A DNA stretch of 50,068 nucleotides from an uncultured Dehalococcoidia bacterium (GTDB taxonomy: Bacteria; Chloroflexota; Dehalococcoidia; SZUA-161), in the NCBI GenBank assembly GCA_964449845.1, contig CAYVES010000004.1, forward strand, positions 1-50,068, in the 5' to 3' direction. Shown in pieces: positions 23,235 to 44,504 of the stretch (positions are counted from its first letter, which is position 1; each line of letters starts with the position of its first letter). The position numbers were made by a program, and so were the translations under genes. The notes beneath the pieces were generated by a model. The model did no database searches, was not told where the DNA came from, and saw nothing but the letters and a program-made list of their open reading frames with translations.

Positions 23235-23441
23235 ATGGCGGTAGAGAAGACAATGGCTTCCGATACCCTGGTTGAGGTCATCGACCGAATCCTAGACAAA
23301 GGCATAGTCGTTGATGCCTGGGTGAGGTTGTCACTGGTGGGCATCGAGCTGCTCACCATCGAGACCAGGGCGGTGGTCTCTTCCGTTGAGACCTTCCTCA
23401 AATACTCTGAGGCGGTTGGTCTTACTGCGCAAGCAGCCTAG
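23235..23441 (+). CDS. gvpA: Gas vesicle major structural protein GvpA
   Basis: 68 aa. [52 protein letters not shown] is the near-invariant GvpA core. A strong RBS (AAAGGAAAGGAGG) is present. Confidence 0.97.
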
Positions 23442-23675
23442 GTCGTGACCACGCGGTAACGGAAGAGGTCAGGAAGGCATCCTTTAGGTATAGAGGCGCA
23501 ACCCCTCCCAAAGTCAACTGCCCCTCTATATCGCAGAACGGGAATTACATAGTAGCCTAAAGCATGCCAGGTTACTCCGAGTTACCACAAGAGGGCAATT
23601 CTTAAGGCATTATGATTTTCCTGATCTTAAGGCCGAGGCAGATTGCCCTCAAACTTCGTTAAAGGGGACTGAATA

Positions 23676-24293
23676 ATGGGAAGCCCTATTGAAAATGTCA
23701 TCGATTCATATGAGGCGCGCGTAACGACGGTTGGCGCCCTGATGAGGCAAATGGTGGAGGTCTTGAAACGGTTTGACCTCGAGCAGGAAGAGAAGGTTAT
23801 GGAGCTGCGTGACCTCTTGGCTCGTGCCGAATCTTTGAGAAGAAAGGACTTCGACACATTGATGGCGGAAATCCGGGCTCGGCGAAGGGAAAAGGAGAAG
23901 AAGGTTGCCCATGCTCTTGACAGTTTCCTGAAGGAGCAAGAGGAGCTGGTGGCCTGGCTGAGGAAGGTCATCACCGATGGCGATATCGGGTTGGAGGAAT
24001 TCAAGGCCCTGAGCCACAGCATCCTCACCCGGCAGAAGGGGGCGCAAGGAGACCTCGGCAGAATGTTGAGAGAGCTGCACCTGGAGCACGAGGAGATGAA
24101 CATTGGTCTGCGGAAGCTTCTCCAGAAGGGGGAGCGGGTCCGCGTAGAGGACTTCAAAGCCATGATAAAGGCTATCCAGCTCAGGCAGGGAGGGAGACAG
24201 GATGAGGTAGGCAGAATGCTGGACGAGCTGTGGGGGGTTGATGAGGAGGTGGCCTCCCAGTGGCACAAGGTGATGAGTTCTATTAGAACCTAA
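23676..24293 (+). CDS. Coiled-coil protein with three ~45-aa internal repeats (candidate GvpC-like accessory protein)
   Basis: 205 aa. Three repeats: SLRRKDFDTLMAEIRARRREKE..., IGLEEFKALSHSILTRQKGAQGDLGRMLRELH and VRVEDFKAMIKAIQLRQGGRQDEVGRMLDELW. It is the first protein gene after gvpA. Confidence 0.7.
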   Translation: MGSPIENVIDSYEARVTTVGALMRQMVEVLKRFDLEQEEKVMELRDLLARAESLRRKDFDTLMAEIRARRREKEKKVAHALDSFLKEQEELVAWLRKVITDGDIGLEEFKALSHSILTRQKGAQGDLGRMLRELHLEHEEMNIGLRKLLQKGERVRVEDFKAMIKAIQLRQGGRQDEVGRMLDELWGVDEEVASQWHKVMSSIRT

Positions 24294-24650
24294 TCAAATA
24301 TCAAAGGAGGGAAGGAAGTGTCAAGGGCAAGTGATGTGAGAAGTCCAGCCCGGGACATTCCTCAAACGCACGGGGAGAGGGCCAAGCAAGTGGCGGAGAT
24401 AAAGGAAGACGTCAAGGCGCTGGTAAAGGTCATCCAGCTCGGGCAGGAGGGGAGACAGGATGAAGTAGGCAAGATGCTGGACGAGTTGTGGGGTGTTGAT
24501 CGGGAGGTGGCTATCCAGTGGCACAAGGTGATGAGTTCTATTAGAACCTAATCGAATATCAAAGGAGGGAAGGAAATGTCAAGGGCAAGTGATGTGAGAA
24601 GTCTGACCCAGGATATTGCTCAAGCGCACGACGATAGGGCTCAAGAGCAG
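24148..24650 (+). repeat. Tandem duplication with a 258-bp period (about 1.9 copies)
   Basis: tggcacaaggtgatgagttctattagaacctaatc(a/g)aatatcaaaggagggaaggaa(g/a)tgtcaagggcaagtgatgtgagaagtc occurs at 24261 and 24519. The unit spans the 3' end of the 205-aa gene, the intergenic RBS and the 5' end of the next gene. Confidence 0.88.
24318..24551 (+). CDS. Chimeric 77-aa ORF created by the 258-bp duplication
   Basis: The N-terminal MSRASDVRSPARDIPQTHGERAKQVAEIKE matches the N-terminus of 24576-25244. The C-terminal QLGQEGRQDEVGKMLDELWGVDREVAIQWHKVMSSIRT matches the C-terminus of 23676-24293. GTG start, same RBS. Confidence 0.5.
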   Translation: MSRASDVRSPARDIPQTHGERAKQVAEIKEDVKALVKVIQLGQEGRQDEVGKMLDELWGVDREVAIQWHKVMSSIRT

Positions 24651-25244
24651 GTGGAGAGGACCAGGCGGATAGCCGAGATAGGAAAGGAGACGGCTGCCCT
24701 GCTCCAACACTTCGACGAGGCTCACGTCCAGATGAGCACCCGGCTCAAGGCACAACTGGCGAAAGAGAAGCAGGGGATTACTAGGGCCGAGATGGAGAGG
24801 AAGAAGGCATGTCAGGCCGACGCAAAGGCGAGAGCGGAAGAGGCAGAGGAGAGGGCAGATGAGGTCATTAGCATCCGCTCTGAGGCTAGAGACCTTGTAG
24901 AAAGCTTCAGCAAAGATTCGGCTGAGGCCGCGGCTGCCTGGCGGGACCTGGTGGCCGCCATGCAGGCCAGAAGGGGCATGGCAGCAGGGCCCCGTCCGGC
25001 TAGGCCGCCCGTCGCTGAAGCAATAGAGGAAGAGATGCCAATGGAGGAGGTCGTCCCGGAGGAAAAGCAGAAGCTGCAGAACAGGATACTCGACTTAATC
25101 ATGGAGCACGCGGAGGGAATAAAGCTCGCCCAGATGACAGAAGCTACGGGAGAGGCAAGGGTGAAGCTGGGCAATATCACCCGGATGCTGCTCGACGAGG
25201 GCAAGATCAGGAAAGAGGGCCTGCTCTATTTCCTGGCTGAATAG
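24576..25244 (+). CDS. Coiled-coil protein with a C-terminal winged-helix-like domain
   Basis: 222 aa. It has a long charged helical region, a Pro/Ala linker, then LQNRILDLIMEHAEGIKLAQMTEATGEARVKLGNITRMLLDEGKIRKEGLLYFL, a wHTH-like pattern. Confidence 0.68.
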   Translation: MSRASDVRSLTQDIAQAHDDRAQEQVERTRRIAEIGKETAALLQHFDEAHVQMSTRLKAQLAKEKQGITRAEMERKKACQADAKARAEEAEERADEVISIRSEARDLVESFSKDSAEAAAAWRDLVAAMQARRGMAAGPRPARPPVAEAIEEEMPMEEVVPEEKQKLQNRILDLIMEHAEGIKLAQMTEATGEARVKLGNITRMLLDEGKIRKEGLLYFLAE

Positions 25245-25273
25245 GCCATTGAGAGACTTTGCTCTTCAATGGC
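25245..25273 (+). terminator. Hairpin immediately after the stop codon (weak terminator or processing-site candidate)
   Basis: GCCATTGAGAG-actttg-CTCT(T)CAATGGC. There is no adjacent U-tract; GGTTTTTCC lies 13 nt downstream. Confidence 0.3.
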
Positions 25274-25330
25274 AAACCTATAGCGGTTTTTCCCTTCGCA
25301 ACGAACAGCGATGAGGAAGGAAGACGCAAT

Positions 25331-25729
25331 ATGGCCGAAGCAGAGGTAATGGAAAAGAGTGGCGACCGGGTTGGCATCAAGTGTGGCTTCTGTCACGGAA
25401 CAGGGAAGGACCCTTTCGGGCTCCTGTCTACACTTGCTGCCTGTCAGGTATGCGGAGGCAGGGGCAGGGTCACCGTCATCGAACCGGTAGTCAAGTGGGC
25501 CTTTTGTCACGGGAGTGGGGTGTAACCCTCCCGTAGATTGACGTGCACTGTGTATAGTGGCAAGGGGGTTGTCCCCACCCCCGCTGAGGGTGAAAGGGAG
25601 GTCTGCCCCGAGTGTGGGGGCAGGGGCAAGACCCGTGGCTACTTGAATGGCCCCTGCCTCAAGTGCAAGGGCAGGGGCTTCATAGTTGCCAAGAAACTGA
25701 AAGGAGGCGATCAAATATGGCGATGGTAG
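25331..25729 (+). pseudogene. DnaJ-type zinc-finger (CxxCxGxG) protein interrupted by an in-frame TAA; possibly decaying paralog of 28161-28526
   Basis: CGFCHGTGK and CQVCGGRGR are intact. WAFCHGSG has W where C is expected. TAA at 25526 is in frame. CTVYSGKG has Y where C is expected. CPECGGRGK and CLKCKGRG are intact. Both halves are in the same frame, and the 3' end overlaps the gvpN start. Confidence 0.55.
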
Positions 25730-26637
25730 AGGAGATGACCACCGTCCTGGAGCCGAGGCCGCTCCAGAATTTCGTCGAGACCAAGGCGGTAACGGATATA
25801 ACCGACCGCGCCCTGACCTATGCCGCCGCCGGATTCCCCGTCCACTTCAGGGGGACAACGGGAACGGGAAAGACAACCCTGGCCATGCATGTGGCCTCCA
25901 AGATCGGGCGGCCGGTGGTGATGATCCACGGTGATGAGGAGTTCAGCACCTCGGACCTGGTAGGTGGAGAACATGGCTACCACCGCAGGAAGGTTATCGA
26001 CAACTTCATCCACTCGGTGCTCAAAACCGAGGAGGATATGAGCAAGAAATGGATCGATGACCGCCTCACCGTAGCCTGCCGCTATGGATTTACCCTCATC
26101 TACGATGAGTTCACCAGGTCCCGCCCCGAGGCAAACAACGTGCTCCTCTCCGTGCTTCAGGAGAAGATGATGGACCTGCCCTCGTCGAGGGGAGTGGAGG
26201 AGAGCTACCTCAAGGTTCACCCCGATTTCACCGCCCTGTTCACCTCCAATCCCGAGGAGTATGCTGGCGTTTATCGAAGTCAGGATGCCCTCCGTGACCG
26301 CATGGTAACCATTGACCTCGATTTCTTTGATAAGGAAACGGAGATCGCCATCACCGAAGCCAAGTCCGGTATATCCCGGCGTGAGGCGGAGAAGATCGTA
26401 AGCATCGTTCGGGATCTGAGGGAATCGGGGAAATGCGAGTTTGCCCCCACCGTCCGCGGCTGCATCATGATCGCCAGGTCGCTGAAGCTTAAGGGTGTCC
26501 CTGCCAGTGCCAAGAACGGGCTCTTCGCCCAGATGTGCCAGGATATCCTGGCCTCGGAGACGAGCCGGGTGGGCAGCAAGAGCAGTCAAGAGAAAGTCAA
26601 GGAGGCCGTCAGGGAGCTGGTACCCAAGTATTGTTAA
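25717..26637 (+). CDS. gvpN: Gas vesicle AAA+ ATPase GvpN
   Basis: 306 aa from the ATG after GAAAGGAGG. Contains FVETKAVTDITDRALTYAAAGFPVHFRGTTGTGKTTLAMHVA (Walker A) and LIYDEFTRSRPEANNVLLSVLQE (Walker B and sensor region), typical of GvpN. Confidence 0.93.
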   Translation: MAMVEEMTTVLEPRPLQNFVETKAVTDITDRALTYAAAGFPVHFRGTTGTGKTTLAMHVASKIGRPVVMIHGDEEFSTSDLVGGEHGYHRRKVIDNFIHSVLKTEEDMSKKWIDDRLTVACRYGFTLIYDEFTRSRPEANNVLLSVLQEKMMDLPSSRGVEESYLKVHPDFTALFTSNPEEYAGVYRSQDALRDRMVTIDLDFFDKETEIAITEAKSGISRREAEKIVSIVRDLRESGKCEFAPTVRGCIMIARSLKLKGVPASAKNGLFAQMCQDILASETSRVGSKSSQEKVKEAVRELVPKYC

Positions 26638-26650
26638 TGGAGGTGTCGAC

Positions 26651-26821
26651 ATGACCTTAGTCCGCGCCTTCTCCAAGGTTGATGACCAGGGAAAGATTGC
26701 CATCCCGGCCAATATTCGCAACCAGGCCAAGCTCAAACCAGGCCAGCTTGTGGAGATCAAGCTCACCGGAGCCGGCAAGGCCAAGAACCTGATAATCTCC
26801 CAGCGGGAAGACTTTAGATAA
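26651..26821 (+). CDS. AbrB/SpoVT-type (looped-hinge helix) small DNA-binding-like protein
   Basis: 56 aa: MTLVRAFSKVDDQGKIAIPANIRNQAKLKPGQLVEIKLTG. The xxxGRIxIPxxIRxxLxLxxGDxV pattern is recognisable. GGAGGTG RBS. Confidence 0.65.
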   Translation: MTLVRAFSKVDDQGKIAIPANIRNQAKLKPGQLVEIKLTGAGKAKNLIISQREDFR

Positions 26822-26844
26822 GTTCTGGCAGGAGGAAATCTGTC

Positions 26845-27162
26845 ATGAGTTCCAGCGGGTCACCTCGCGGCATAGAAGGTATCAGGATCTCGAAACCTCG
26901 GAGCTTCCAGGCTGCGCATCGAAGGCACAATGATAGCTACTTGGACCAGTACATGCTGCACAAAGAAAAGGAGCGGCTGGAAAAGGAACTGGTTCAACTG
27001 GGGAAGAGACAGGAAGGAATCAGCAAGCGCCTGCAGACCATAGACGCGAAAATGGAGGAACTGCGGGAATCATCAGGCCAAGAGGACCAGAAGGTCAAAG
27101 AAAACGGGAGAGAGGCACCTACCAATGGGAAGGGGTGGAAGCGAATGAGCGTAGACTACTGA
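26845..27162 (+). CDS. Hypothetical coiled-coil protein
   Basis: 105 aa after AGGAGGAAATCTGTC. The central part is KEKERLEKELVQLGKRQEGISKRLQTIDAKMEEL. No family recognised. Confidence 0.55.
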   Translation: MSSSGSPRGIEGIRISKPRSFQAAHRRHNDSYLDQYMLHKEKERLEKELVQLGKRQEGISKRLQTIDAKMEELRESSGQEDQKVKENGREAPTNGKGWKRMSVDY

Positions 27163-27180
27163 AAGGTTCCTGGAAATGGA

Positions 27181-27927
27181 GTGGGAACCTTAGAGCTGTC
27201 GGGGGCAAGGGAGGTGGATCACAAACAATATGAGCAACAAGCTAGCCAGGATGTGGGGATGGAAATGGACGAAGAGTGCACGAAGAGGCAGGAGCAAAGG
27301 GAGAGGGGTGCCCCTTCTATAGAAGTTACGCCATTGAGGGACGTGAAAACGGGGGCAAGAATAGAGGAGCAGACTCAGGATTTGGGGATAGCTGGCTGGT
27401 TGCAGCAGGGGCTGGCCCAGTGGGCGCAGAAGAATCGGCCGCAGAACAGGAAGGAAGGGAGAAGACCAAATTCAGCCACCCTGGCTGTTATGTTGAGAAA
27501 AGCAGTAGCCAGAGAGAAGGCGCTGGCTTTCGGAAGGCCGCTGCCTGATCCCCGCGCTGTCGCCCTGAAGCACGAAGCGGCCCGCTGGAAGGAGAAGGAG
27601 GAAGAGAAGAAAAGGCTTATCCACCGAGAGATTGGAATGCTGCAGAAGCTCGTCCAGCTTATGGCCAGGGACGAGTTCTTTGATGAATCAAAGAGAGATG
27701 AATTCTGGACTATCGGCCGGGTTAGCTGCCTGGCGGATAAGGTGCTCCAGGATGGCTGGAATCTAATCGTCGTTGCTTTGGAGAAGAGCCCGTTTATGCT
27801 CCGCTGGGGCTGGGGTGAGCTGCTCGGCCTGTACCATGCCGAGCTGGATGACCAGCTCAATCTGAAGGACTATTTTCGGGTAACCACGGAGGAGCTGGAG
27901 GAGTATTCCTGGATCAAGAAGTCATGA
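27181..27927 (+). CDS. Hypothetical charged protein
   Basis: 248 aa with a GTG start, in the same operon context. No recognisable domain. Confidence 0.55.
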   Translation: MGTLELSGAREVDHKQYEQQASQDVGMEMDEECTKRQEQRERGAPSIEVTPLRDVKTGARIEEQTQDLGIAGWLQQGLAQWAQKNRPQNRKEGRRPNSATLAVMLRKAVAREKALAFGRPLPDPRAVALKHEAARWKEKEEEKKRLIHREIGMLQKLVQLMARDEFFDESKRDEFWTIGRVSCLADKVLQDGWNLIVVALEKSPFMLRWGWGELLGLYHAELDDQLNLKDYFRVTTEELEEYSWIKKS

Positions 27928-27942
27928 CACAGGAGGGAGAAA

Positions 27943-28155
27943 ATGCCAAGCGGGACTGAAGCAGATGCCCTGAAAAGGATCAGTGAGGCTGGAGGGAGGA
28001 TCGATGTGAGAGCACTGGCTCGCAAAATGGGTCGCAACACCTCCTACATGAACACCATCTGCCGTTCTCTGGGGAAAGCCGATTACATCGATTACCTCGC
28101 CTCCGGGATGTGCGTTATCACCGCTATGGGCGAAGAAGCGGTGAAGGGCAGTTAG
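27943..28155 (+). CDS. Small winged-helix-like protein
   Basis: 70 aa: LKRISEAGGRIDVRALARKMGRNTSYMNTICRSLGKADYIDYLASGMCVITAMGEEAV. This resembles a MarR/ArsR-like wHTH core. RBS GGAGGGAG. Confidence 0.5.
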   Translation: MPSGTEADALKRISEAGGRIDVRALARKMGRNTSYMNTICRSLGKADYIDYLASGMCVITAMGEEAVKGS

Positions 28156-28160
28156 GGAAA

Positions 28161-28526
28161 ATGGCAAAGCGAGTGGTTGAATGCGTCTATTGCAAGGGGA
28201 AAGGGAAACGCAGCTATCTTGAAAAAGGGGTCGGGGTTGCTCTTCGCGGAGAACCGACTTATGAGTTCGTGTGCCCGGTGTGTTCTGGCAGGCGAAAGGT
28301 AGAGGTGGAGGAGCCAGCGAGAACTTGCGGCTTCTGCGGGGGGACGGGGCTATCAAAGCAGGGCAGTCTGGCTACCTGCCCTGTGTGCAAGGGTAAGGGT
28401 ATGGTCACGGTAATAGAGCCGGTCAGTCAGTGTCCTGCTTGCCGCGGACGGGGAAGGAAGCCCGGGAGCCCCCTTTACTGTATTAGATGTAAAGGCACCG
28501 GTTTCATAACCACAGTCAGGGTATGA
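28161..28526 (+). CDS. DnaJ-type zinc-finger protein (about five CxxCxGxG-type units, one degenerate), no J domain
   Basis: 121 aa from the internal ATG. Units: CVYCKGKGK, CPVCSGRRK, CGFCGGTGL, CPVCKGKGM, CPACRGRGR and CIRCKGTGF. Confidence 0.8.
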   Translation: MAKRVVECVYCKGKGKRSYLEKGVGVALRGEPTYEFVCPVCSGRRKVEVEEPARTCGFCGGTGLSKQGSLATCPVCKGKGMVTVIEPVSQCPACRGRGRKPGSPLYCIRCKGTGFITTVRV

Positions 28527-28551
28527 GAATGGACACCGGGGGAGGACAGGG

Positions 28552-29565
28552 GTGAGCAACTATATCTACGGCGTGATTCAAACCAAGAAGGGGAAGAACT
28601 TCGGCCCCATCGGGATCGGCGGTGGGGATGAAGTTTATACCATCCTCTACCTGGACCTGGCAGCGGTGGTAAGCGATTCATTACCCGCTGCGCTCACTAC
28701 TCTCCCCAAGGAGGAGGTAGTGCGCTACCTCTTTGCTCACCAAGCCGTCATTGAGAAGGTGATGAAAGAGCATACTATTATTCCCCTCAAGTTCGGGACC
28801 ACTGTCGGCAGCGCTGAAGAGGTGAAAGAGATTTTAGAGAAGGCCTATCCTAAGTTCAAAGATGCCCTCGAAGCTATGGCGGGCAAGGTGGAGTTCGATG
28901 TGGTTGTTACCTGGAATAAGGACTCTGTGTTCAAGGACATCTCGCAGGAGGAGGAAATCATAAGGTTCAAGCAAAGCCTCGGCCCCCAGCCCTCGGCAGA
29001 AGATAAGGTGAAGCTGGGGCGAATGGTCGAAGACTTTCTAGGCAAGAGGAAAGAGACGCTTGCCCCAGAGATAACCGCTGCCTTAGCCGAAGTCGCTGAG
29101 GATTTCTGCCCCCACGATACCCTGGACGCCACCATGATTATTAACACCGCATTTTTGATCCGAAAAGACAAGCAGGAGGCCTTTGACCAGAAGCTTGACG
29201 AGATAGACTGCAAATATGATGGCGGCTTGAATTTCAGGCGGGTGGGGCCCCTACCACCCTATAGCTTCAGCACCGTTGAGGTCAAGAAGGCTGAGTTTGG
29301 AGAGATTGGAAGGGCAAGAAAGATACTGGGCTTGAGCCAGGAGGCTACGCAGTCCCAGATTAAGGAGGCTTACTGGAATCTGTCCTCGGAGTATCATCCC
29401 GACAAGCACCCGGGTGATGTGGCAATCCGAAAGAGGTTTGAGGATGTTTCCTGGGCCTATGAGCTTCTCACTGAATACTGCGGAGGAGAGAGGTTCTCTT
29501 TTCGAGAAAAGGATGCCAGGGCCTTTGTTAAGGTAGACCTGGTCGGAATCGGAAGAAGAGGGTAG
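28552..29565 (+). CDS. GvpF/GvpL-family protein fused to a C-terminal J domain (HPD motif present)
   Basis: N-terminal NYIYGVIQTKKGKNFGPIGIGGGDEVYTILYLDLAAVVSD...IPLKFGT is GvpF/L. C-terminal ARKILGLSQEATQSQIKEAYWNLSSEYHPDKHPGDVAIRKRFEDVSWAYELL is a J domain. GTG start. Confidence 0.88.
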   Translation: MSNYIYGVIQTKKGKNFGPIGIGGGDEVYTILYLDLAAVVSDSLPAALTTLPKEEVVRYLFAHQAVIEKVMKEHTIIPLKFGTTVGSAEEVKEILEKAYPKFKDALEAMAGKVEFDVVVTWNKDSVFKDISQEEEIIRFKQSLGPQPSAEDKVKLGRMVEDFLGKRKETLAPEITAALAEVAEDFCPHDTLDATMIINTAFLIRKDKQEAFDQKLDEIDCKYDGGLNFRRVGPLPPYSFSTVEVKKAEFGEIGRARKILGLSQEATQSQIKEAYWNLSSEYHPDKHPGDVAIRKRFEDVSWAYELLTEYCGGERFSFREKDARAFVKVDLVGIGRRG

Positions 29566-29570
29566 CTGAA

Positions 29571-30323
29571 GTGGCTGAGGAAGGTAAATACCTCTACTGC
29601 ATTATCGCAAACAACGAAGGAAGAAACTTCGGTCCACTTGGCATCGGCGGGAGAGGTGATCCGGTTACCACCATCTCCTACAATGACCTCAGTGGGGTCA
29701 TCAGCGACGCCCCGATAAAGGAGTATGCCACCACCAGGGCGAATACCATCGCTCATGAGAAAGCTATCGAGAAAGTGATGAGCGAGGGGAATGCCGTCCT
29801 CCCGGTGAGATTCGGCACTGTGGCCGATAGCGCTCAGGAAGTGCGGGACATTCTGCGCAAGAGAGACCGGGAATTCAAAGACCTGCTCCGCGATATGGAC
29901 AACAAGGTCGAACTGGGGGTGAAGGCGCTCTGGCTTGATATGGACGCTATCTTTAACGAGATCATAGAGGAAAGTGGCGACATCAGAGTGTTGAGAAACA
30001 GGGCTGCCCGCAAGCCAACTCGAGATAGCATGATTCGGGTGGGGGAGCTGGTCAAGGAGGCCTTGGAGGAGAAGAAGGAAAGGGAGGCAGCCTCAATACT
30101 TCAGCCCCTGAACAAGATCGCCCCCGATTCCAAGGTCAATAAGCCCTTCGGCGATAGAATGTTCCTCAATGCCGCCTTCCTGGTTGACAAAGGCTGGGGA
30201 AAACAATTCGACAATGAAATCGAAACCCTGACGATGAAGTATGCCCAGAGGGCGAAGATCACCTATGTTGGGCCTGCCCCGCCCTTCAACTTCGTCAACA
30301 TAGTAATCCACTGGGAAAGATAA
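29571..30323 (+). CDS. gvpF: Gas vesicle protein GvpF/GvpL family
   Basis: 250 aa: KYLYCIIANNEGRNFGPLGIGGRGDPVTTISYNDLSGVISD...VLPVRFGTV...FNFVNI. GTG start, 5 nt after the previous stop. Confidence 0.88.
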   Translation: MAEEGKYLYCIIANNEGRNFGPLGIGGRGDPVTTISYNDLSGVISDAPIKEYATTRANTIAHEKAIEKVMSEGNAVLPVRFGTVADSAQEVRDILRKRDREFKDLLRDMDNKVELGVKALWLDMDAIFNEIIEESGDIRVLRNRAARKPTRDSMIRVGELVKEALEEKKEREAASILQPLNKIAPDSKVNKPFGDRMFLNAAFLVDKGWGKQFDNEIETLTMKYAQRAKITYVGPAPPFNFVNIVIHWER

Positions 30324-30324: not shown

Positions 30325-30561
30325 ATGCCCATTCTAACAACCTACCTAATCTTCAAGGGTCTTCGAGGCATTGCCGGGAAGATTCGCGATATGGCTGAGG
30401 AGGAATACTACGGGGAGGACAGGATAAAGCAGCAGCTTCTGGAACTCCAGATGAGGTTGGAGATGGATGAGCTAACCGAGGAGGAGTATCTGAAAGCGGA
30501 AGCTGCCCTGATGGGAAGGTTGGAGGAAGGTCGCCAACGCGGCGTTCAAGGAGCAGTATGA
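30325..30561 (+). CDS. gvpG: Gas vesicle protein GvpG
   Basis: 78 aa: GIAGKIRDMAEEEYYGEDRIKQQLLELQMRLEMDELTEEEYLKAEAALMGRLEE, the characteristic GvpG helix pattern. Confidence 0.88.
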   Translation: MPILTTYLIFKGLRGIAGKIRDMAEEEYYGEDRIKQQLLELQMRLEMDELTEEEYLKAEAALMGRLEEGRQRGVQGAV

Positions 30562-32551: not shown

Positions 32552-32926
32552 ATGGCGCTAACGGCGGAAAAGGACTCAGGCGGAACCCTGGCTGATGTCA
32601 TCGACCGGGTTCTGGACAAAGGGCTGGTAATTAACGCCGACATCACCGTGTCTCTGGCTGGGGTGGAGCTATTGGGCATTAAGATAAGGGCAGCCCTGGC
32701 TTCTTTTGAGACGGCAGCCAAGTATGGCCTGGAGTTTCCCTCGGGGACAAATTATGAGACCGCTGCCTGGCAGGAGGCTACAGTTGCCAAAGAGGAATGT
32801 CCCCAGTGTGAGAAGAGGGTGCACCTGGATGAACTCCTCAACGAGGGGTGCCCGTGGTGCGGCTGGGTCAGCGCCAAGGCCAAGGCAATCCGCGCCAAGG
32901 CAACTCCAGAGATGGAAGCCCGCTAA
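32552..32926 (+). CDS. gvpJ: GvpA/GvpJ-family protein with C-terminal zinc ribbon
   Basis: TLADVIDRVLDKGLVINADITVSLAGVELLGIKIRAALASFETAAKYG is the GvpA/J core. CPQCEKRVHLDELLNEGCPWCGW follows. Confidence 0.85.
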   Translation: MALTAEKDSGGTLADVIDRVLDKGLVINADITVSLAGVELLGIKIRAALASFETAAKYGLEFPSGTNYETAAWQEATVAKEECPQCEKRVHLDELLNEGCPWCGWVSAKAKAIRAKATPEMEAR

Positions 32927-34815: not shown

Positions 34816-35142
34816 ATGCCACTTGATATCGATGAGGGCAATCTGAAGCATGGTGTGTTGGGACTGGTCATTGCGCTGGTGGAGATAATCAGGGATACCC
34901 TCAGGATCGAAGCCTTCCGGAGAATGGACGGCGGAAGCCTAGCAGATGAGGAATGTGAGCGGCTGGGAGAAGCACTGCTCGACCTGGATATGGCTATCGA
35001 GGAGATAAAAGAGGAGCAGGGCATCACCGAGGCAGTTCAGCAGGTGAGGGATGGCCTGGATGACATCGCGAGGGAAGTGGTTGACAGAATGGCAAACCCG
35101 GTGAGATGGGAGGAGGAAGCCGAAAGGCAAGGGGTGTGCTAG
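34816..35142 (+). CDS. gvpK: Gas vesicle protein GvpK
   Basis: 108 aa: GVLGLVIALVEIIRDTLRIEAFRRMDGGSLADEECERLGEALLDLDMAIEEI, the characteristic GvpK block. Confidence 0.9.
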   Translation: MPLDIDEGNLKHGVLGLVIALVEIIRDTLRIEAFRRMDGGSLADEECERLGEALLDLDMAIEEIKEEQGITEAVQQVRDGLDDIAREVVDRMANPVRWEEEAERQGVC

Positions 35143-37019: not shown

Positions 37020-38132
37020 GTGGGAATGCAACCTACGGCGGCAACGGAATGTGGTGTAACCGATCTCTTAGAGAGGATTCTAGACAAGGGGCTGGTAATC
37101 CATGCCGACCTCATAGTCTCCCTGGCAGGGGTTCCTCTTGTCGGGGTTACTCTAAAGGCAGCCATAGCCGGGATGGAGACAATGCTGAAGTATGGCATGT
37201 TGACCGATTGGGATGAAAAGACCCGCGACTGGGCTCGAACGGAGCGGGAGGAATCTCGAAAAGCGAGCGGGGTCTTGAAAGACGGTGAAGAGGTTCTGAT
37301 CAGGATGTTCGGCTCCCACTGGTACAGCCGGGGCATCTACCGCAACTGGAGGCCGGGGCATCTCTACGTCACCGATAGGAGGCTTCTACTGTGGAGACCC
37401 TATCCCGGCGAGGTATTAACGGAGGTTCACTACGAGCTAATAAAAGGAATGGCTGTGGAGAGAAGGATAAATGTCGCCAAGAAGGAAACGGATTACCTTT
37501 ATATATTGCTCAAGGATGGCGAGGTGGTTCAACTCCATCCCACCGATGCTTCGGTGGTAAGAGAGGCTATTGAAAACAGGATGCAAACGCTGGGACTGCA
37601 ACTGGAGAGTTACCCAGCTATCCCGCCCGTTGATGAGGGGGCAGCCAGGTTCTTGACCCCTGGCGAGCAAGTTACCCACTGCGGCAGGATGTGGCACCTC
37701 GTGACCCAGCCCTCCCCGGGCGGAATCACCAGCGAGAAGTGGAAGCCGGGACACCTGTATCTAACCAACGAGAGGCTGTACTGGTATCACGACTTCGACG
37801 GCAAGGTGGACTGGGAAGCCCCCCGTGACAGCCTGGTTCATGCCACTGCTCAGTTAAAGAATCTCGGGGGTATGCTGAAGGAGAAGCAGGTCCTCAGTGT
37901 GCTGCACAAGACCGGGTCAGGTAACAGGGTAGCATGCTTCTCTGGCGTGCCGGTGGAGATGAAGGACTGGGAGGATGCCCTAGTAGATGTCATCAGGCAG
38001 CGCAGCGAACCCATGCCTGAGGACTGGGAACAGTGCCCCCAGTGCGGGGAGAAAGCGCCCCGAGAGAGGCTGGTAAAAGATGGCTGCCCGGTGTGCGGCT
38101 GGGTAAGCCCCAGGCTGACGCGAAGAGTCTAG
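37020..38132 (+). CDS. GvpA/GvpJ-family domain fused to two PH/GRAM-like domains and a C-terminal zinc ribbon
   Basis: 370 aa. VTDLLERILDKGLVIHADLIVSLAGVPLVGVTLKAAIAGMETMLKYGM is the GvpA-family core. WRPGHLYVTDRRLLLW and WKPGHLYLTNERLYWY mark two PH/GRAM-like modules. CPQCGEKAPRERLVKDGCPVCGW closes it. The start may be the ATG at 37026. Confidence 0.83.
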   Translation: MGMQPTAATECGVTDLLERILDKGLVIHADLIVSLAGVPLVGVTLKAAIAGMETMLKYGMLTDWDEKTRDWARTEREESRKASGVLKDGEEVLIRMFGSHWYSRGIYRNWRPGHLYVTDRRLLLWRPYPGEVLTEVHYELIKGMAVERRINVAKKETDYLYILLKDGEVVQLHPTDASVVREAIENRMQTLGLQLESYPAIPPVDEGAARFLTPGEQVTHCGRMWHLVTQPSPGGITSEKWKPGHLYLTNERLYWYHDFDGKVDWEAPRDSLVHATAQLKNLGGMLKEKQVLSVLHKTGSGNRVACFSGVPVEMKDWEDALVDVIRQRSEPMPEDWEQCPQCGEKAPRERLVKDGCPVCGWVSPRLTRRV

Positions 38133-38142: not shown

Positions 38143-38421
38143 GTGAGCAAAATGTCTCTGACGACGGTTCAGGTAGTAGACCGGGCTAAGAAGCAGCTAA
38201 GCGAGCTCATAGAGAGGAAGCCATCAGGTGTGACTGCGGTTCACAAGGATGATGGGGGGTGGCATGTCTCGCTGGAGATGCTGGAGAAGAAGTCTATCCC
38301 CGATGGCATGGATTTGCTTGCCGAGTATGAGGTCGTGCTTGATGATGACGGGAATATACTGAAGTTTGACCGGGGTGACCTGCGCACCCGCAGCGAGGCG
38401 ACAAAACATGAAGAGGAATAG
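38143..38421 (+). CDS. gvpO: Gas vesicle protein GvpO
   Basis: 92 aa: VVDRAKKQLSELIERKPSGVTAVHKDDGGWHVSLEMLEKKSIPDGMDLLAEYEVVLDDDGNILKFDRGDLRTR matches the GvpO pattern (W.V.vE..E...iP...D.la.YEv.lD..G.l..f.R). RBS AAAGGAGG. Confidence 0.8.
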   Translation: MSKMSLTTVQVVDRAKKQLSELIERKPSGVTAVHKDDGGWHVSLEMLEKKSIPDGMDLLAEYEVVLDDDGNILKFDRGDLRTRSEATKHEEE

Positions 38422-38487: not shown

Positions 38488-38727
38488 TTGACAGAGATGG
38501 CAGAAGAGAAGACGACAGCAGTGACGGGTCCGTTTCACTGCCCTATGTGTCTAGCCACCACCTCGGGGAGGCATGCCTTTTGCCCTGAGTGTGGCGAGCC
38601 CCTGGATATGCAGTGTCCCAACTGCGGACTTACCTGGCGATTCTATATCAAGCATACCTTTTGCCCTTCCTGCGGACAAAGGGTTCCGGCAAAAGCTGGA
38701 CTGACCACAGCTAAAGGCTGGGGCTAG
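38488..38727 (+). CDS. Small double zinc-ribbon protein
   Basis: 79 aa. CPMC...CPEC...CPNC...CPSC gives four CxxC pairs. The start is TTG at 38488 or ATG at 38497. Confidence 0.58.
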   Translation: MTEMAEEKTTAVTGPFHCPMCLATTSGRHAFCPECGEPLDMQCPNCGLTWRFYIKHTFCPSCGQRVPAKAGLTTAKGWG

Positions 38728-38757
38728 AGTCTTTGCCTGGTACAGAGAGGAAGGTGC

Positions 38758-40503
38758 ATGGCTAGAGTCATAGGGATTGATTTGGGTACTACCAACTCGG
38801 TAGCTGCCTTTATAGAGAATCGCAAGCCAAAGGTCATCCCCAATGCCGAGGGTGGTCGGCTGACCCCTTCTGTAGTGGCGTTGACCGCAGATGGGAGGCG
38901 GCTGGTGGGGCAACTGGCAAAGAGGCAGGCCGTAGCCAACCCCGAGAAAACCGTTGTCTCCATGAAGAGGCGAATGGGCTCTGACTTCAGGGTGAGGCTT
39001 GGCCGAAAGGAGTACACGCCTCAAGAGGTCTCAAGCCTTATCTTGGGTAAGATCAAAGCCGATGTCGAAAGCTACCTGGTGGAGAGGGTGGAAAAGGCGG
39101 TGATCACCGTTCCTGCCTATTTCAATGACTCTCAGCGTCAAGCCACCAAAGATGCTGGGACCATCGCTGGGTTGGATGTACTCAGGATTATTAACGAACC
39201 CACGGCCGCTGCCTTGGCCTATGGGTTGGATAAGCAGGACGCCCATAATATCCTGGTCTGGGACCTTGGCGGCGGCACGTTCGATGTCTCCATCCTGGAG
39301 CTGGGCAGGGGAATGTTTGAGGTCAAGGCGGTAAGTGGCAACACCTGGCTGGGGGGGGATGACTGGGACCAGCGTATCGTGGATTATCTGGCTGGCGAGT
39401 TCCAGAGACAGCACGGCATCGACTTGCGAGAAGACAGGATAGCCCTGCAGCGGCTGAGGGAGGCCGTGGAGAAAGCCAAGATCGAGCTTTCAAACAGCCA
39501 GGTTGCCTCCATCAAACTGACGTTTATCCTCAGTAACAACCATGATGCCGAACATCTGGATATGACACTGACCAGGGAAAGGTTCGAGGAGCTAACAGAG
39601 GATTTGCTTCAGAAGATGATTGGGCCCACCAAGCAAGCTTTGGCCGATGCCAAACTCGAGCCTGAAGATATCGATAGGGTAGTTCTGGTAGGCGGAGCTA
39701 CCAGGATGACGGCGGTGCAGCAGCTATGCCGAGCGCTCTTGCGTAAGGAGCCTTACAAGGACATCGATCCCGATGAGGTGGTGGCTATGGGCGCCGCCAT
39801 TCAAGCCGGGATGCTAAGCGGTGAACTGGAAAAGGTAACATTGCTCGATGTTACCCCCCTCTCTCTGGGCATTGAGACCAGGGGCGGGATTTTTGCCAGG
39901 ATTATTGAAAGGAATGCCAAAATTCCTACCTCCACAAGCCAGGTATTTTCCACGGCTTTCGACAACCAGCCTGAGGTGGATATTCATGTGCTGCAGGGAG
40001 AGAGGGAGATGGCTTGTTACAACATGAGCCTGGGCAGATTTCAGCTCACCGATATCCCCCTTGCTCCCCGAGGAGTGCCCCGCGTCGAGGTCGTCTTTAG
40101 TATCGACGTTAACGGCATTCTCCAGGTGTCTGCCACAGACCTATATACCGAAAATGAAGCCAGATTAAGGATTCAGTCCTCCAGGCTATCACCTGAGGAC
40201 ATCGGACGGATGATCGAAGAAGCTAAGGTCTATGCTGAGGAGGACAAGAGGCGGCGCGAAGAGGTAGAGATAGGTATTAGAGCCGACAACCTCATCTATG
40301 CTGCTGAAAAGATGGTGGAGCAGACAGGGGATAGATTGGATGACACCCAGCTTGCGGAAACAGAGGCAAAGGTATTAGCGGTGAAGTCCGCTCTAGCCAG
40401 TGGAGATACTGAGGAGATCAGGTTAAGAACTGAAGACCTACAAGAAGTGGTCCGGGAGTTATACACGGAGAAGGAGGAGCTTACCAGTGCAAGGGCGACT
40501 TGA
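38758..40503 (+). CDS. Hsp70 (DnaK-family) chaperone, compact 581-aa form
   Basis: [72 protein letters not shown] and a full beta-sandwich SBD ([13 protein letters not shown]...[19 protein letters not shown]). The helical lid is short. Confidence 0.95.
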
Positions 40504-40758
40504 GGAGCTGAAGAAGCCGTATGTTTAGACTCAAACAATGCCGGAACAATGTAGCGGAGCACCAGCGTCTCCTGATGTAGTGCAGAGGATCCCTGTGGCT
40601 GAACAGAGGGTACCAGACCCAAGAGCTTCTAACGATCGTCAAAGGCCATCGATGCCAACGGCGCCGTTCTCAAGTGTACCCCGAGAGAAGAAGCGTTTAA
40701 AGATATAGCCAGTCTCACCCAGTCCTTTGGGGGAATTGGATCAGAAACGCCAAGAGTA

Positions 40759-40787
40759 TTGACATGTGTTTAATCATCTGTTATAAT
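40759..40787 (+). promoter_or_regulatory. Consensus sigma70-type promoter upstream of the HTH-Hsp20 gene
   Basis: TTGACA (40759-40764), a 17-nt spacer, then TATAAT (40782-40787). It lies 18 nt upstream of the ATG at 40805, so the leader is very short or absent. Confidence 0.62.
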
Positions 40788-40804
40788 GTCTGTGCAGGTG
40801 AGGG

Positions 40805-41500
40805 ATGGAGAATAGACGTATCAGGGGATTGCGATTAGAGCTTGGTCTGTCTCAGGAGAGGTTTGCTCGGCTCGTTGGCGTCTCACTGCAAACGGTGCGA
40901 CGGTGGGAGGAAGGCTTAACCAGACCTCTGCCTGTCTTGAGTCTCAAGCTGGAGGAGCTACAAAGAAATTCCGGAGGTGTTGGAATGGGTGAGGAGGAAA
41001 AGAAGAAAGTGGAAGGAACTGTGGATATTGGTTTCGGTGGCCTGTTCAAGGGACTCGGCAGCCTGTTTGACCTCGTCTCCAGGATGGCTGAGGAGGGGAA
41101 AGATGAATATACCCGCACCGGGGAGATTACGGGCCTGGGCGACAAGGCTAAGGGAGTATATGGCTTTAGCGTAAAGATGGGGCTGGGAGGAAAGCCGACT
41201 ATAGAACAGTTCGGCAATATCAAGGCAACCGAGAGGGGGCCGGTGGTGGCGGAGGTCAGGGAGCCTATAGTTGATGTCTTCGATGAGGGGGAGAGATTGG
41301 TAGTGATCGCTGAACTTCCTGGTGTGGACGAGGACGACATCCACCTTGAGGTGAAAGATGACATTATCGATCTGGCTGCGGAAGCAAAGGACAGGAAGTA
41401 CAGTAAGGAGATTCTACTTCCCTCGGCAGTGGATGCCGATTCTATGCAATCTACCTACAAGAACGGGATTCTGGAGATAACGTTCAAGAAGAAGCAATAA
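40805..41500 (+). CDS. XRE-type HTH domain fused to an alpha-crystallin (Hsp20) domain
   Basis: N-terminal IRGLRLELGLSQERFARLVGVSLQTVRRWEEG is an HTH_3 pattern. C-terminal PIVDVFDEGERLVVIAELPGVDEDDIHLEVKDDIIDLAAEAKDRKYSKEILLPSAVDADSMQSTYKNGILEITFKK is an ACD. Confidence 0.83.
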   Translation: MENRRIRGLRLELGLSQERFARLVGVSLQTVRRWEEGLTRPLPVLSLKLEELQRNSGGVGMGEEEKKKVEGTVDIGFGGLFKGLGSLFDLVSRMAEEGKDEYTRTGEITGLGDKAKGVYGFSVKMGLGGKPTIEQFGNIKATERGPVVAEVREPIVDVFDEGERLVVIAELPGVDEDDIHLEVKDDIIDLAAEAKDRKYSKEILLPSAVDADSMQSTYKNGILEITFKKKQ

Positions 41501-41517
41501 ACCCTTCACTGGGGGGA

Positions 41518-41640
41518 AGCGTTCAGCCGCTAGCTATCAATTCGTAGGGTGGGTGCAGCAGGGCGGAACCCACCAACCAGCGTTCAGCCGTCAGCTCTGG
41601 AAGGTGGGTTGCGTTTCGCTCCACCCACTTTACTATGCTG
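41518..41640 (+). repeat. Two tandem 61-nt units, each ending in a GGTGGGT...ACCCAC(C) hairpin (REP-like)
   Basis: agcgttcagccgctagct...GGTGGGTgcagcagggcggaACCCACC and agcgttcagccgtcagct...GGTGGGTtgcgtttcgctccACCCAC. An inverted gctgaac follows at 41651. Confidence 0.75.
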
Positions 41641-41682
41641 AGTGCTGATCGCTGAACACCTGCGAATCAGGAGGCAACAAAG

Positions 41683-43827
41683 ATGGCGAAGGTGGAAACT
41701 AACGCCGTAACCCTTAGGGTTTCGGAGGCGCTGGCTAAGGACGTGGGTCGAGGAATAGCCAGGATCGACCCTAAAGATATGGTGGAGACAGGCGCTGAGG
41801 TTGGAGATATCGTTCAGATTGTGGGTAAGAGACCCACTGTTGCCAGACTTATGCCCACCTACATGGAGGACCGGGGCAAGGACAGCATTCAAATCGATGG
41901 CATTACGCGAGAGAACGCCCAGATTGGACTGGGTGAGAAGGTACAAATTCAAAAGGTTGAACACAAGACCGCCAATGCCATAGTCCTCGCCCCAATAGCC
42001 CCATCATCTGCCTTCGCTCGCGAAAAGGATACCGGCTACATCGGGAGGCTGCTTGAGGGAATGGCTGCCACCTCTGGAGACAAGGTAAGGGTCACCCTTT
42101 TTGGCACTCGCTATCAGGAATTCTCTGTGGTGGATACCAACCCCAAGGGAGTCGTTGTTGTCCATCCCACCACCCGGGTAAAGATGAAAGGTGAAAGGGT
42201 TACCGAGAGAGAAGGGGTTGGAGTTACCTACGAGGACATCGGTGGATTGCACAAGGAGATTCAGAAGATAAGAGAGATGATCGAGCTTCCCCTGAAATAC
42301 CCTGAGGTGTTTGACAGGCTGGGGATTGAAGCCCCCAAGGGGGTATTGCTCCATGGCCCTCCGGGATGCGGCAAGACTCTGATCGCCCGAGCGGTAGCCA
42401 ATGAGACCGACGCTGGCTTTTTCCATGTAAGTGGTCCCGAGGTCATCCATAAGTTTTATGGAGAGAGTGAAGCACACCTGCGGGCTTTGTTTGAGAAGGC
42501 AGGTGAACAGGCGCCGGCCATAATCTTTTTGGATGAGATTGACGCTATAGCCTCCAAAAGGGAGGAAATCAGGGGCGACCAGCAGGTGGAAAGAAGGGTT
42601 GTTGCCCAGCTTCTGGCGTTGATGGATGGCCTGAGATCAAGGGGGCAGGTGATCGTCATCGGGGCAACCAATATACCCAATGTGCTTGACCCGGCACTGC
42701 GGAGACCGGGCAGGTTTGATCGGGAGATTTCAATAAGCATCCCCGACAAGAAGGGAAGGCTGGAGATACTCCACATCCATACTAGAGGAATGCCTTTGGC
42801 TTCGGATGTCGACCTGGAAAAGCTGGCTGAAATCACCCATGGCTTTGTTGGTGCCGACCTGGAGGCGCTCTCTAGAGAGGCGGCGATGATAACCCTGAGG
42901 AAGATCATGCCCAAGATCGAGTTTGAGACCGACTATATTCCCTATGAACTGCTCCTGGAACTGGAAGTTACCATGGATGACTTCATGGAGGCATTAAAGG
43001 AGGTGGAGCCTTCAGCCATCAGGGAGGTTTTCACTGAGATTCCCGATGTAAAGTGGAGCGATGTCGGTGGTCTTGAGGAGGCGAAACGAGTGCTCAGGGA
43101 GACCATCGAGTGGCCCCTCAGCTATCCCGAGGTATTCGGCAAAGCCAATACCAGTCCTCCCAAGGGGATACTGCTTACCGGAGCCCCAGGGACGGGTAAG
43201 ACGCTGCTGGCTAAGGCTGTGGCTAACGAGAGTGGAGTGAACTTCATCTCGGTAAAGGGCCCGGCCTTGCTCACAAAATGGGTGGGGGAGTCGGAGAAAG
43301 GGATCAGGGAGGTGTTCAAGAAAGCCAAACAGGCCAGCCCCTGCATCATGTTCTTCGATGAGATAGACGCCATCGCCCCCACCAGAGGGGTTAGTGCTGA
43401 TTCCCACGTCACTGAGCGAGTGATCAGCCAGTTCCTCACTGAACTCGATGGAATAGAGGAGCTTAAGGGGGTGATGGTTCTGGCTGCTACCAACAGGCCG
43501 GATATTATCGACCCAGCTCTGCTTAGAGCTGGCAGATTCGACTTCCAGTTGGAGCTGCCAATGCCTGATGAGGAGACAAGGCTGGAGATATTCAAGGTTC
43601 ATACCAGGGGCAAACCCCTGGCTGACGATGTTGACCTCAAGTCCCTCGCCAAGGCAACTCAAGGCGTGGCAGGCTCTGATATAGAGGCTATCTCAAGGAG
43701 AGCTTCGATGCTGGCGATAAGGGAATTCATAAACCGGGAGGAAATGGACCTCGACAAACTCAAGATCGAGGCCCGGCATTTCAGGGAGGCACTTGAGACA
43801 ACAAGGATGGCCAAAGACCAGCGATGA
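41683..43827 (+). CDS. Cdc48/VCP-like double-ring AAA+ ATPase (N domain + D1 + D2)
   Basis: 714 aa. N-terminal [23 protein letters not shown]...GDIVQIVG is a Cdc48-N pattern. Two Walker A motifs ([22 protein letters not shown]), two Walker B motifs ([20 protein letters not shown]) and two second-region-of-homology blocks ([26 protein letters not shown]). Confidence 0.93.
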
Positions 43828-44504
43828 GAAAACTCCTTTATGTCCCTATTATCCACACGGAGTCTGAACTGGGAAGCGTAGCTTCCGCTATCGAGAGCAG
43901 AAGCGCCGCTCTGGTTGGAGAGGAGAAATGGGCCAGACACAAGGAAGTAGTGGCAAAGTTCTGGGAGAACCTGGCTCACCACTTCGATTCTCTTGATGCT
44001 GCCAATCTCAAGATATATCAAGATGGTCTCCTCGCAGATGGCGAACTGGGCAGGAGGGTCGTCGAGGAGGCAGCAAAACGCGGCAGCAGGAATCACCAAA
44101 TCATCCTCAACCTTGTGGAGAAGGGCGCTGAGCTTATGAAGACCGAGGATACAGATCTCATCAAGGAGGAGTATAAACATATTATCCAGCTTGCTCAGTC
44201 CAAATCGGTTGTTGGGAAAAGCGTTGCCTTCACCAAGTATAAACTGCGCAAAGGTTCGCTGCTGAAGGAAAGGGATAAATTTGTAGCTGAAACGATCGAT
44301 CAAACGCTGAAGGAAGAGGAGACTGGCGTTCTCTTTATGGGGAGTCATCATGATGTTCTCCCTTATCTCCCGGAAGACATTGTAGTAGAGCAGGTCAAGG
44401 ACAGGGAAAGGATTAACCTTTACTTCAAGTATCTTATTTCAAGGATAAGTAGGAGAAGATTTGAGCAGTTGGCAGAATACGTTGCCTCCCTAACACAAAC
44501 CTAA
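43824..44504 (+). CDS. Hypothetical protein, start overlapping the stop of the Cdc48-like ATPase
   Basis: 226 aa with an ATGA overlap to the upstream stop. No recognisable domain. Confidence 0.6.

Follow-up and report, generated by a model that had tools for sequence, protein, structure and literature searches.

The gas vesicle (gvp) gene clusters of Halobacterium (p-vac, gvpACNO/DEFGHIJKLM), Anabaena, Bacillus megaterium, and Serratia 39006 share a core consisting of GvpA, GvpN, GvpF/L, GvpG, GvpJ/M, GvpK, and GvpO. To our knowledge and judging from reviews, no description of these model clusters includes a GvpF with a J domain, an Hsp70, a Cdc48/VAT-type ATPase, or DnaJ-type zinc fingers. 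Here, we analyze a cluster from an uncultured Dehalococcoidia bacterium which possesses the same core together with all of these components. It occupies positions 23235-44504 of a stretch of 50,068 nucleotides (nt) from contig CAYVES010000004.1; this whole stretch is called the window throughout.

Part of this inventory has been reported before. Castillo and Saier (2010; PMC2963123) found two-domain ArsA homologues of about 640 aa together with Hsp20 in gvp operons devoid of ars genes in Polaribacter, Pelodictyon, Geobacter uraniireducens, Anabaena/Nostoc, and an acidobacterium, and proposed that the ATPase energizes a step of vesicle biogenesis. In these operons the ATPase was treated as a relative of ArsA, whereas the scores of the ATPase in the window are much closer to Get3-type proteins. 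That article does not mention Hsp70 or DnaK, and its gvp passages name neither a J-domain fusion nor Cdc48 nor a zinc-finger protein. A paper on the Hakuba actinobacterium places hsp20 beside gvp genes; its passage on this locus names no other chaperone gene. A search of the full-text literature, with subscription journals outside its scope, returned no Hsp70, no fusion of a J domain with GvpF, no Cdc48, and no zinc-finger protein in gvp clusters. Thus, the J-domain fusion, Hsp70, Cdc48, and the 226-aa partner of the latter appear to be undescribed in gvp clusters, ArsA and Hsp20 being already known. The initial annotation of this DNA had considered Hsp70/J-domain, Get3-like, and Cdc48-like components as undescribed in the model clusters and the whole as an undescribed variant of vesicle biogenesis. 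This appears to hold for Hsp70, the J-domain fusion, and Cdc48, but not for the Get3-like ATPase, the two-domain ArsA having been reported in 2010.

The cluster in the window belongs to a type which is widespread among gvp clusters. We consider it likely that this cluster type encodes a client-specific proteostasis network of its own beside the structural and accessory Gvp proteins. About 30 consecutive open reading frames (ORFs), all on the plus strand, fill positions 23235-44504, and a strongly positive skew in base composition matches exactly the extent of this block. Neighboring genes are mostly separated by 0-30 nt or overlap by 4 nt, e.g., GvpG/ArsA and Cdc48/226-aa gene. Gaps of more than 150 nt exist after gvpA (234 nt) and ahead of positions 37020 (278 nt), 40805 (301 nt), and 41683 (182 nt), and nowhere else. 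Domains were assigned by Pfam and NCBIfam profile scans of the cluster ORFs (Table 1). GvpN, GvpF/L, GvpG, the GvpJ/M-type protein, GvpK, and GvpO every one score above curated cut-offs; GvpC, GvpD, and GvpE were not found in the cluster. GvpA is 71-91% identical to its probable orthologues across phyla when matches covering at least 90% of the protein are considered.

The initial annotation had placed the canonical gvp genes in a co-directional 21-kb block, which profile searches confirm for all of them, and the same scans reproduce its Hsp70, J-GvpF fusion, tandem Get3/ArsA, and Cdc48-like assignments. Other items need revision. Of two proposed DnaJ-type zinc-finger proteins the one at 28110-28526 stands, the other is a gene split by an in-frame TAA. 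Among three proposed alpha-crystallin proteins the one at 40805-41500 is confirmed, that at 34139-34813 is retained as a paralogue below the cut-off, and that at 33285-34061 contains only part of the domain. Four ATPases are indeed encoded; the four classes claimed reduce to three superfamilies because GvpN and Cdc48 are both AAA+ proteins.

Chaperones and gas vesicles are tied together within a single polypeptide by a GvpF/L protein whose C-terminal part is a J domain (GvpF-J); among all observations this fusion speaks most strongly for the linkage. The Pfam domains GvpL_GvpF and DnaJ are both present in 119 of the 120 best homologue clusters. When 14 diverse GvpF-J proteins were aligned, the His-Pro-Asp (HPD) motif (H282, P283, D284) was the same in all of them; this motif is the part of a J domain which triggers ATP hydrolysis by Hsp70. 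Public annotations give the fusion either as 'GvpL/GvpF family gas vesicle protein' or as 'Chaperone protein DnaJ'. Hsp70 is commonly aimed at one class of clients by a J domain joined to a module that binds them, as in auxilin/Hsc70 (clathrin) and HscB/HscA (IscU); the presumed client-binding module in the window differs from these in being a GvpF/L domain. GvpF/L proteins bind GvpA itself. They are also reported to belong to an accessory Gvp complex (PMC7688916).

GvpF-J is widely distributed. When one genome per species was scanned, at least 558 species genomes encoded a relative, with about 15 phylum labels. The labels are those of the submitters and were read from the best 80 of the at least 558 genomes. 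On the Chloroflexota side they comprise Dehalococcoidia, Anaerolineae, Ktedonobacteria (including the cultured Ktedonobacter), and Chloroflexia. Beyond these we find Zixibacteria, Ignavibacteria, Desulfobacterota, Nitrospirota, Planctomycetota, Omnitrophota, NC10, Chlamydiota, Latescibacteria, Kiritimatiellota, Actinomycetota, and others; matches to the GvpF-J protein add Acidobacteriota and Aerophobetes. The nearest of the listed loci (L004) is from a Dehalococcoidia metagenome-assembled genome (MAG), with 66-91% identity over full-length protein matches.

The gene neighborhood was compared in two directions. In the forward test the proteins of the window were aligned by tblastn against GvpF-J loci, and counts were restricted to loci with a length of 18 kb or more, of which there were 30. 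GvpA, GvpN, and a small heat-shock protein (sHsp) were each present in 29 of these, Cdc48 in 28, the 226-aa ORF after Cdc48 in 23, ArsA (tandem or single-domain) and a zinc-finger protein in 20 each, and Hsp70 in 10. For the reverse test Cdc48 served as query against metagenome contigs; 44 loci (66-89% identity) had 6 kb or more of flanking sequence. Gvp genes were present in 39 of the 44. All 44 carried an sHsp gene, in nearly every case directly 5' of Cdc48; the 226-aa gene followed Cdc48 in 35, and Hsp70 was found in 28. All four ATPases are located within 10 kb of the fusion gene in loci labeled Anaerolineales, Desulfobacteraceae, and Planctomycetales and in a deltaproteobacterial MAG. In Ca. 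Hakubella thermalkaliphila (Actinomycetota) Cdc48, GvpF-J, the tandem ArsA, and Hsp70 are united in one gvp cluster. Relatives ascertained via GvpF-J or Cdc48 keep the chaperone neighbors, whose absence the initial annotation would have taken as chance adjacency. A functional tie of the chaperone and ATPase genes to the gvp genes is well supported by these comparisons and by the fusion.

The Hsp70 is of the DnaK type with a short C-terminus and contains the motif RIINEPT. Its closest relatives (64-100% identity) are likewise short forms. All relatives with at least 62% identity whose context was checked, i.e., on contigs of the GvpF-J list and by look-ups, reside within gvp clusters. Housekeeping DnaKs of Firmicutes come next with 61-64% identity, and most gvp-linked Hsp70s of other lineages are 46-62% identical to the copy in the window. 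At residue 375 (GIET-x-GG), the substrate-arch position that corresponds to Met404 of E. coli DnaK, 23 of 24 gvp-embedded Hsp70s carry Q, R, E, K, or S; in a small comparison set of 14 Firmicutes DnaKs this position is Leu. The polar residue hints at a changed client-binding site and a common specialization of gvp-linked Hsp70s. The stop codon of the gvp-embedded Hsp70 is overlapped in some relatives by a gene without annotation, 303-316 aa in length (L164, 9823-10773; L166, 11758-12669). It could encode an Hsp70 co-factor. The window has no counterpart and displays a 301-nt gap at this place.

The gene following this gap encodes an XRE-type helix-turn-helix (HTH) domain fused to an alpha-crystallin domain, and it is here that a weak match to GvpH, the Hsp20-like protein of the model clusters, is encountered. 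The sHsp-like protein at 34139-34813 is its clear paralogue (37% identity over 138 aa, E 5e-20).

The Cdc48 homologue has the domain order N (double-psi barrel and beta-clam), D1, and D2 (CDC48_N 90 bits, CDC48_2 34 bits, two AAA stretches), and the Thermoplasma unfoldase VAT is its best solved relative (5g4f, E 3.7e-222). Walker A and B motifs and arginine fingers are present in both rings (GPPGCGKT, IMFFDE, RPGRFD, RAGRFD). The pore loops of D1 and D2 are aromatic (KFYGESE, KWVGESE), as in VAT. The C-terminus, ...TTRMAKDQR, carries no HbYX tail. Because of the aromatic pore loops and the missing HbYX tail the protein is apparently an active threading machine for which docking to a proteasome is unlikely. 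The domain order is also that of actinobacterial Cpa. The Cdc48 of the window differs from these relatives as a bacterial protein without HbYX whose gene is part of a cluster for an organelle, where an sHsp and the 226-aa protein are its partners. Across phyla it is 60-76% identical, compared with 34-50% for GvpF-J outside its three closest relatives.

The 226-aa partner, which is translationally coupled to Cdc48, belongs to a family with at least 363 homologue clusters, none of which has a name. It has no match in Pfam, NCBIfam, or the sequences of the PDB. Its AlphaFold (AF2) model is confident, with a predicted local distance difference test (pLDDT) score of 89; when the model was compared with the PDB by Foldseek, the best E value was 0.15 and template-modeling (TM) scores stayed below 0.3. 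Sub-threshold matches to TraB/PrgY/GumN, a family akin to the TIKI metalloproteases, appear in 7 of 30 members (best E 0.019). Invariant residues of the 226-aa family include His, Asp, Glu, and Arg. The protein may be a hydrolase, which we regard as a lead and not as a finding.

The tandem ATPase consists of two Get3/ArsA-type domains. Its best solved relatives are Chlamydomonas ArsA1 (5zme; 227 bits) and archaeal Get3 (3zq6, 3ug6; 186-193 bits), compared with 128 bits for E. coli ArsA. Each half has a deviant Walker A motif (GKGGSGKT, GKGGVGKT) and a CxxC motif (CSFC at 262, CGFC at 595). The latter are followed by a Get3-like R/K...Y context and presumably match the yeast zinc motif at the dimer interface. 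The first half contains six Met residues between positions 159 and 185, a segment which may belong to a hydrophobic client groove; no such Met enrichment is seen in the second half. With the deviant Walker A and CxxC of each half the protein resembles Get3/TRC40. It differs in that no Get1/2-like receptor or tail-anchored client is evident in the cluster, the only place searched, and in that its presumed clients are Gvp proteins bound for a protein shell and not for a lipid membrane. A role in arsenic resistance was considered and rejected because no ars genes are nearby, ars-type domains being absent among the cluster ORFs, and because the protein scores far under the ArsA equivalog cut-offs (225 vs. 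650 and 266 vs. 800). The ArsA homologues outside ars operons are reported to lack the metalloid-binding cysteines (Castillo and Saier, 2010; PMC2963123).

The stand-alone zinc-finger protein has five CxxCxGxG motifs. A small CxxCxGxG-only protein dedicated to one assembly is plant BSD2, which serves Rubisco; the window protein is like it in small size and repeat. The interrupted zinc-finger gene lies directly 5' of gvpN. Two cysteines of one of its repeats are gone (C to W, C to Y), and its orthologues in three relatives (L006, L003, L051) are intact. Decay of this copy or a mistake in the assembly is the probable cause. Recoding of the stop, by selenocysteine or by read-through, was rejected: because the stop is TAA and two nearby cysteines are lost as well, decay is indicated instead.

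The most likely mechanism arranges these components as follows. The GvpF/L domain of the fusion would bind hydrophobic subunits of the GvpA family and present them to Hsp70. Via its HPD motif the J domain would trigger ATP hydrolysis and cause Hsp70 to clamp its GvpA-family clients; in the window this would be the Hsp70 of the cluster itself, and clusters which lack one presumably rely on the housekeeping DnaK. Unassembled or misassembled subunits would be held by the small heat-shock proteins, and a Cdc48 hexamer with the 226-aa partner would thread and unfold or extract them. Together, sHsp, Hsp70/J, and Cdc48 would act like the disaggregation triad sHsp-DnaK/DnaJ-ClpB, aimed at Gvp proteins. 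The tandem Get3-like ATPase might serve as an ATP-gated and the zinc-finger proteins as a passive shield of hydrophobic segments until delivery to the growing vesicle. In sum, the shell protein would be kept competent for assembly and failed assemblies would be cleared. The window matches the sHsp-DnaK/DnaJ-ClpB system in having an sHsp, Hsp70 with a J factor, and a double-ring AAA+ protein, the Hsp70, sHsp, and Cdc48 genes being contiguous (38758-43827). It differs in that the AAA+ protein is of the Cdc48/VAT type, the J domain resides on a client-specific Gvp protein, and no GrpE is encoded; the likeness is functional only. In E. coli, GvpA is proteotoxic when it is expressed and assembly factors are not (PMC12848028), which fits a need for chaperone help. 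The whole suggests that many bacteria use dedicated chaperones for a very sticky shell protein.

Several points weigh against this interpretation. The loci were ascertained via the GvpF-J fusion or Cdc48 and do not represent gvp loci at large. Hsp70 is found in just one third of the long loci and ArsA is missing from one third, so both are dispensable or replaceable. Neither grpE nor dnaJ is located beside Hsp70, and no GrpE match exists among the 30 cluster ORFs. In a neighbor-joining tree of 41 sequences, which is not decisive, the gvp-linked Hsp70s form three to four groups and not one clade; they may have been recruited several times. The steps of the mechanism, like the pathway of holdase, targeting, and unfoldase put forward in the initial annotation, are extrapolated from known families. 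Assembly, quality control, and dismantling are not separable by sequence, and vesicle production by this uncultured Dehalococcoidia-like lineage is a prediction from its genes.

The alternative which survives best, though we consider it unlikely, is that the chaperone and unfoldase set mainly dismantles vesicles. From vesicles which have collapsed or are no longer wanted, shell protein would be extracted by Cdc48 together with the 226-aa partner, GvpF-J would recruit Hsp70 to the vesicle surface in an auxilin-like manner, and subunits would be recycled or degraded, by which the cell could reduce its buoyancy. Cdc48/VAT enzymes are established extractors and unfoldases, and Cdc48 is the best conserved protein of the chaperone set, yet it lacks the HbYX tail for docking to a proteasome. 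The sHsp, Cdc48, and the partner form a separate module with a promoter-like site of its own. The partner matches TraB/PrgY/GumN weakly, but this signal is under any threshold and has no fold match, and no protease was confidently identified in the cluster. Further, zinc-finger and Get3-like holdases suit biogenesis better. Dismantling and assembly are not mutually exclusive.

A stress-related assembly of Gvp-like proteins and chaperones which provides no buoyancy, as suspected for the gvp clusters of Streptomyces, appears improbable. Many carriers are MAGs from the anaerobic subsurface, mostly of sediment, groundwater, and soil lineages, and heat-shock-type genes are numerous in the cluster. 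Ktedonobacter, the carrier in culture, is not known to have been reported with gas vesicles. On the other hand, the conserved core is complete (GvpA, N, F/L, G, J, K, O) and GvpA maintains the high identity across phyla noted above. The set is also present in two loci labeled Chloroflexia (L050, L082; label only), and mesophilic Chloroflexales have been observed to form gas vesicles (PMC7332563).

Finally, accidental adjacency or a general heat-shock island next to gvp genes, with Hsp70 as the housekeeping DnaK, is very improbable: Hsp70 does score as a DnaK and is only 61-64% identical to Firmicutes DnaKs, most gvp-linked Hsp70s of other lineages being about equally distant (46-62%), but as far as sequence tells this explanation is contradicted by a J domain fused to a Gvp protein, by the gvp context of all checked Hsp70 relatives with at least 62% identity, by the lack of an adjoining grpE or dnaJ, and by a synteny kept across many phyla in the forward and the reverse test, which excludes chance adjacency.

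Table 1. Features of the gvp cluster and its flanks in the window
Feature	Positions	Strand	Evidence or remark
OmpR-type response regulator, directly 5' of gvpA	22191-22952	+	Response_reg 77.5 bits, Trans_reg_C 72.4 bits
GvpA shell protein, 68 aa	23235-23441	+	PF00741, 58 bits
Coiled-coil protein, unknown function	23676-24293	+	No Pfam or NCBIfam match
Chimeric ORF between coiled-coil genes, 77 aa	24318-24551	+	Product of 258-bp tandem duplication
Coiled-coil protein, unknown function	24576-25244	+	No Pfam or NCBIfam match
DnaJ-type CxxCxGxG zinc-finger gene, interrupted	25259-25729	+	Weak DnaJ_CXXCXGXG; in-frame TAA 25523-25525
GvpN AAA+ ATPase	25612-26637 (ORF; likely start ~25717)	+	TIGR02640, 356 bits (cut-off 267); AAA_5
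AbrB/MazE-like small protein, 56 aa, straight after gvpN	26651-26821	+	Weak MazE_antitoxin, CDC48_N
Three small/unknown ORFs: 105-aa coiled coil, 248 aa, 70 aa (weak MarR-like)	26845-28155	+	Profile scan
Stand-alone DnaJ-type zinc-finger protein	28110-28526 (likely start 28161)	+	DnaJ_CXXCXGXG 45.5 bits, above cut-off
GvpF-J, GvpF/L protein with C-terminal J domain	28552-29565	+	GvpL_GvpF 200 bits, DnaJ 55 bits
GvpF	29571-30323	+	Profile scan
GvpG	30325-30561	+	Profile scan
Tandem (two-domain) Get3/ArsA-family ATPase	30558-32525	+	PF02374 ArsA_ATPase 479 bits, two stretches; TIGR00345 480 bits
GvpJ-like protein with C-terminal zinc ribbon	32552-32926	+	PF00741, 63 bits
113-aa protein, two copies of the zinc ribbon of the GvpJ-like protein	32939-33280	+	Motif CPxCG-x11-GCxxCGW
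258-aa unknown protein, partial alpha-crystallin-like C-terminus	33285-34061	+	Only ~22-31 residues (first strands) of the domain
sHsp-like protein	34139-34813	+	HSP20 19.5 bits, just under the 20.8 cut-off
GvpK	34816-35142	+	Profile scan
Long GvpF/L	35143-36219	+	Profile scan
GRAM/PH-like protein, 131 aa	36346-36741	+	Similarity to repeats in 37020-38132 protein
GvpA-domain protein with two GRAM/PH-like repeats and zinc ribbon	37020-38132	+	PF00741 53 bits; weak PH/Vps36
GvpO	38143-38421	+	Profile scan
Double zinc-ribbon protein	38488-38727	+	Profile scan
DnaK-type Hsp70, 581 aa, short C-terminus	38758-40503	+	NF001413 818 bits; HSP70 721 bits
Promoter-like site, TTGACA-17 nt-TG-TATAAT	40759-40787	+	12/12 match; consensus match only
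XRE-type HTH fused to alpha-crystallin (sHsp/GvpH-like) domain	40805-41500	+	HTH_3 40.8 bits, HSP20 36.5 bits (cut-off 20.8); weak GvpH
Long stable hairpin, sHsp-Cdc48 spacer	41544-41633	+	190-nt spacer fold -84.6 kcal/mol, z = -4.6
VAT/Cdc48-type double AAA+ ATPase with N domain	41683-43827	+	TIGR01243, 980 bits
226-aa partner of Cdc48, uncharacterized family	43824-44504	+	4-nt overlap with Cdc48 gene
PAS histidine kinase, 3' of cluster	46433-47863	+	HisKA, HATPase_c

The remaining genes of the cluster include a protein which is an addition to the initial gene list, i.e., the GvpA-domain protein at 37020-38132. Its GRAM/PH-like repeats are related to the stand-alone 131-aa protein encoded just 5' of it, and a similar gene of 371 aa is present in relatives (L164). 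We know of no description of such a combination of GvpA and GRAM/PH-like domains in the model gvp clusters. There are four copies of the zinc ribbon CPxCG-x11-GCxxCGW: the GvpJ-like protein and the GvpA-domain protein each carry one at the C-terminus, and the 113-aa protein contains the other two. Through this ribbon the three proteins may be gripped by one and the same partner.

The coiled-coil gene after gvpA is kept at this place in 20 of the 30 long loci, and the 105-aa coiled-coil protein in 14 of them. Between the two coiled-coil genes after gvpA a tandem duplication of 258 bp (84% identity) spans 24147-24657. The chimeric ORF located there resembles the downstream gene in its N-terminus and the upstream gene in its C-terminus. 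Genes of exactly 56 aa occupy the same place after gvpN in an acidobacterial locus (L002) and in one from Aerophobetes (L003).

The response regulator is a probable regulator of the cluster and the PAS kinase its possible partner; for both, membership in the cluster is tentative. The two genes bracket the cluster on the same strand as its genes. Receiver-domain genes are also positioned 5' of gvpA in distant relatives (L001-L003). The promoter-like site lies 18 nt 5' of the HTH-sHsp gene, inside the 301-nt gap; such sites are not in excess over the region as a whole. A terminator scan identified no convincing internal terminator (10 sites vs. 19 expected), and an Rfam scan of 22000-47000 for thermometers and leaders returned matches at chance level only. 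The hairpin in the sHsp-Cdc48 spacer belongs to no Rfam family and is a single copy in the window. Its 20-nt core has no exact match in any related locus fetched.

What would this cluster type mean for the biology of gas vesicles? Tentatively, and with more doubt than conviction, we entertain the view that a dedicated assembly and turnover machinery of a protein-only organelle has been overlooked in a large share of the bacteria which encode gas vesicles. With equal reserve, we would assign to it GvpF-J with Hsp70, the sHsp with a bacterial Cdc48/VAT and a new-fold protein, and the Get3-like ATPase. If true, bacteria would possess a client-specific Cdc48 system, and a Get3-type ATPase would deliver hydrophobic subunits to a gas-facing protein shell instead of a lipid membrane. 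The accessory Gvp proteins have so far been termed chaperones only loosely. With concrete, well-understood machines at hand, it becomes testable how the extremely hydrophobic GvpA stays in solution, reaches a growing vesicle, and is built into it. Gas vesicles are in use as acoustic reporter genes, and in foreign hosts many gvp clusters prove toxic or do not assemble (PMC12848028); co-expression of the cluster chaperones would be an obvious remedy to attempt. Lastly, the cluster provides the bacterial Cdc48/VAT homologues with a probable physiological client.

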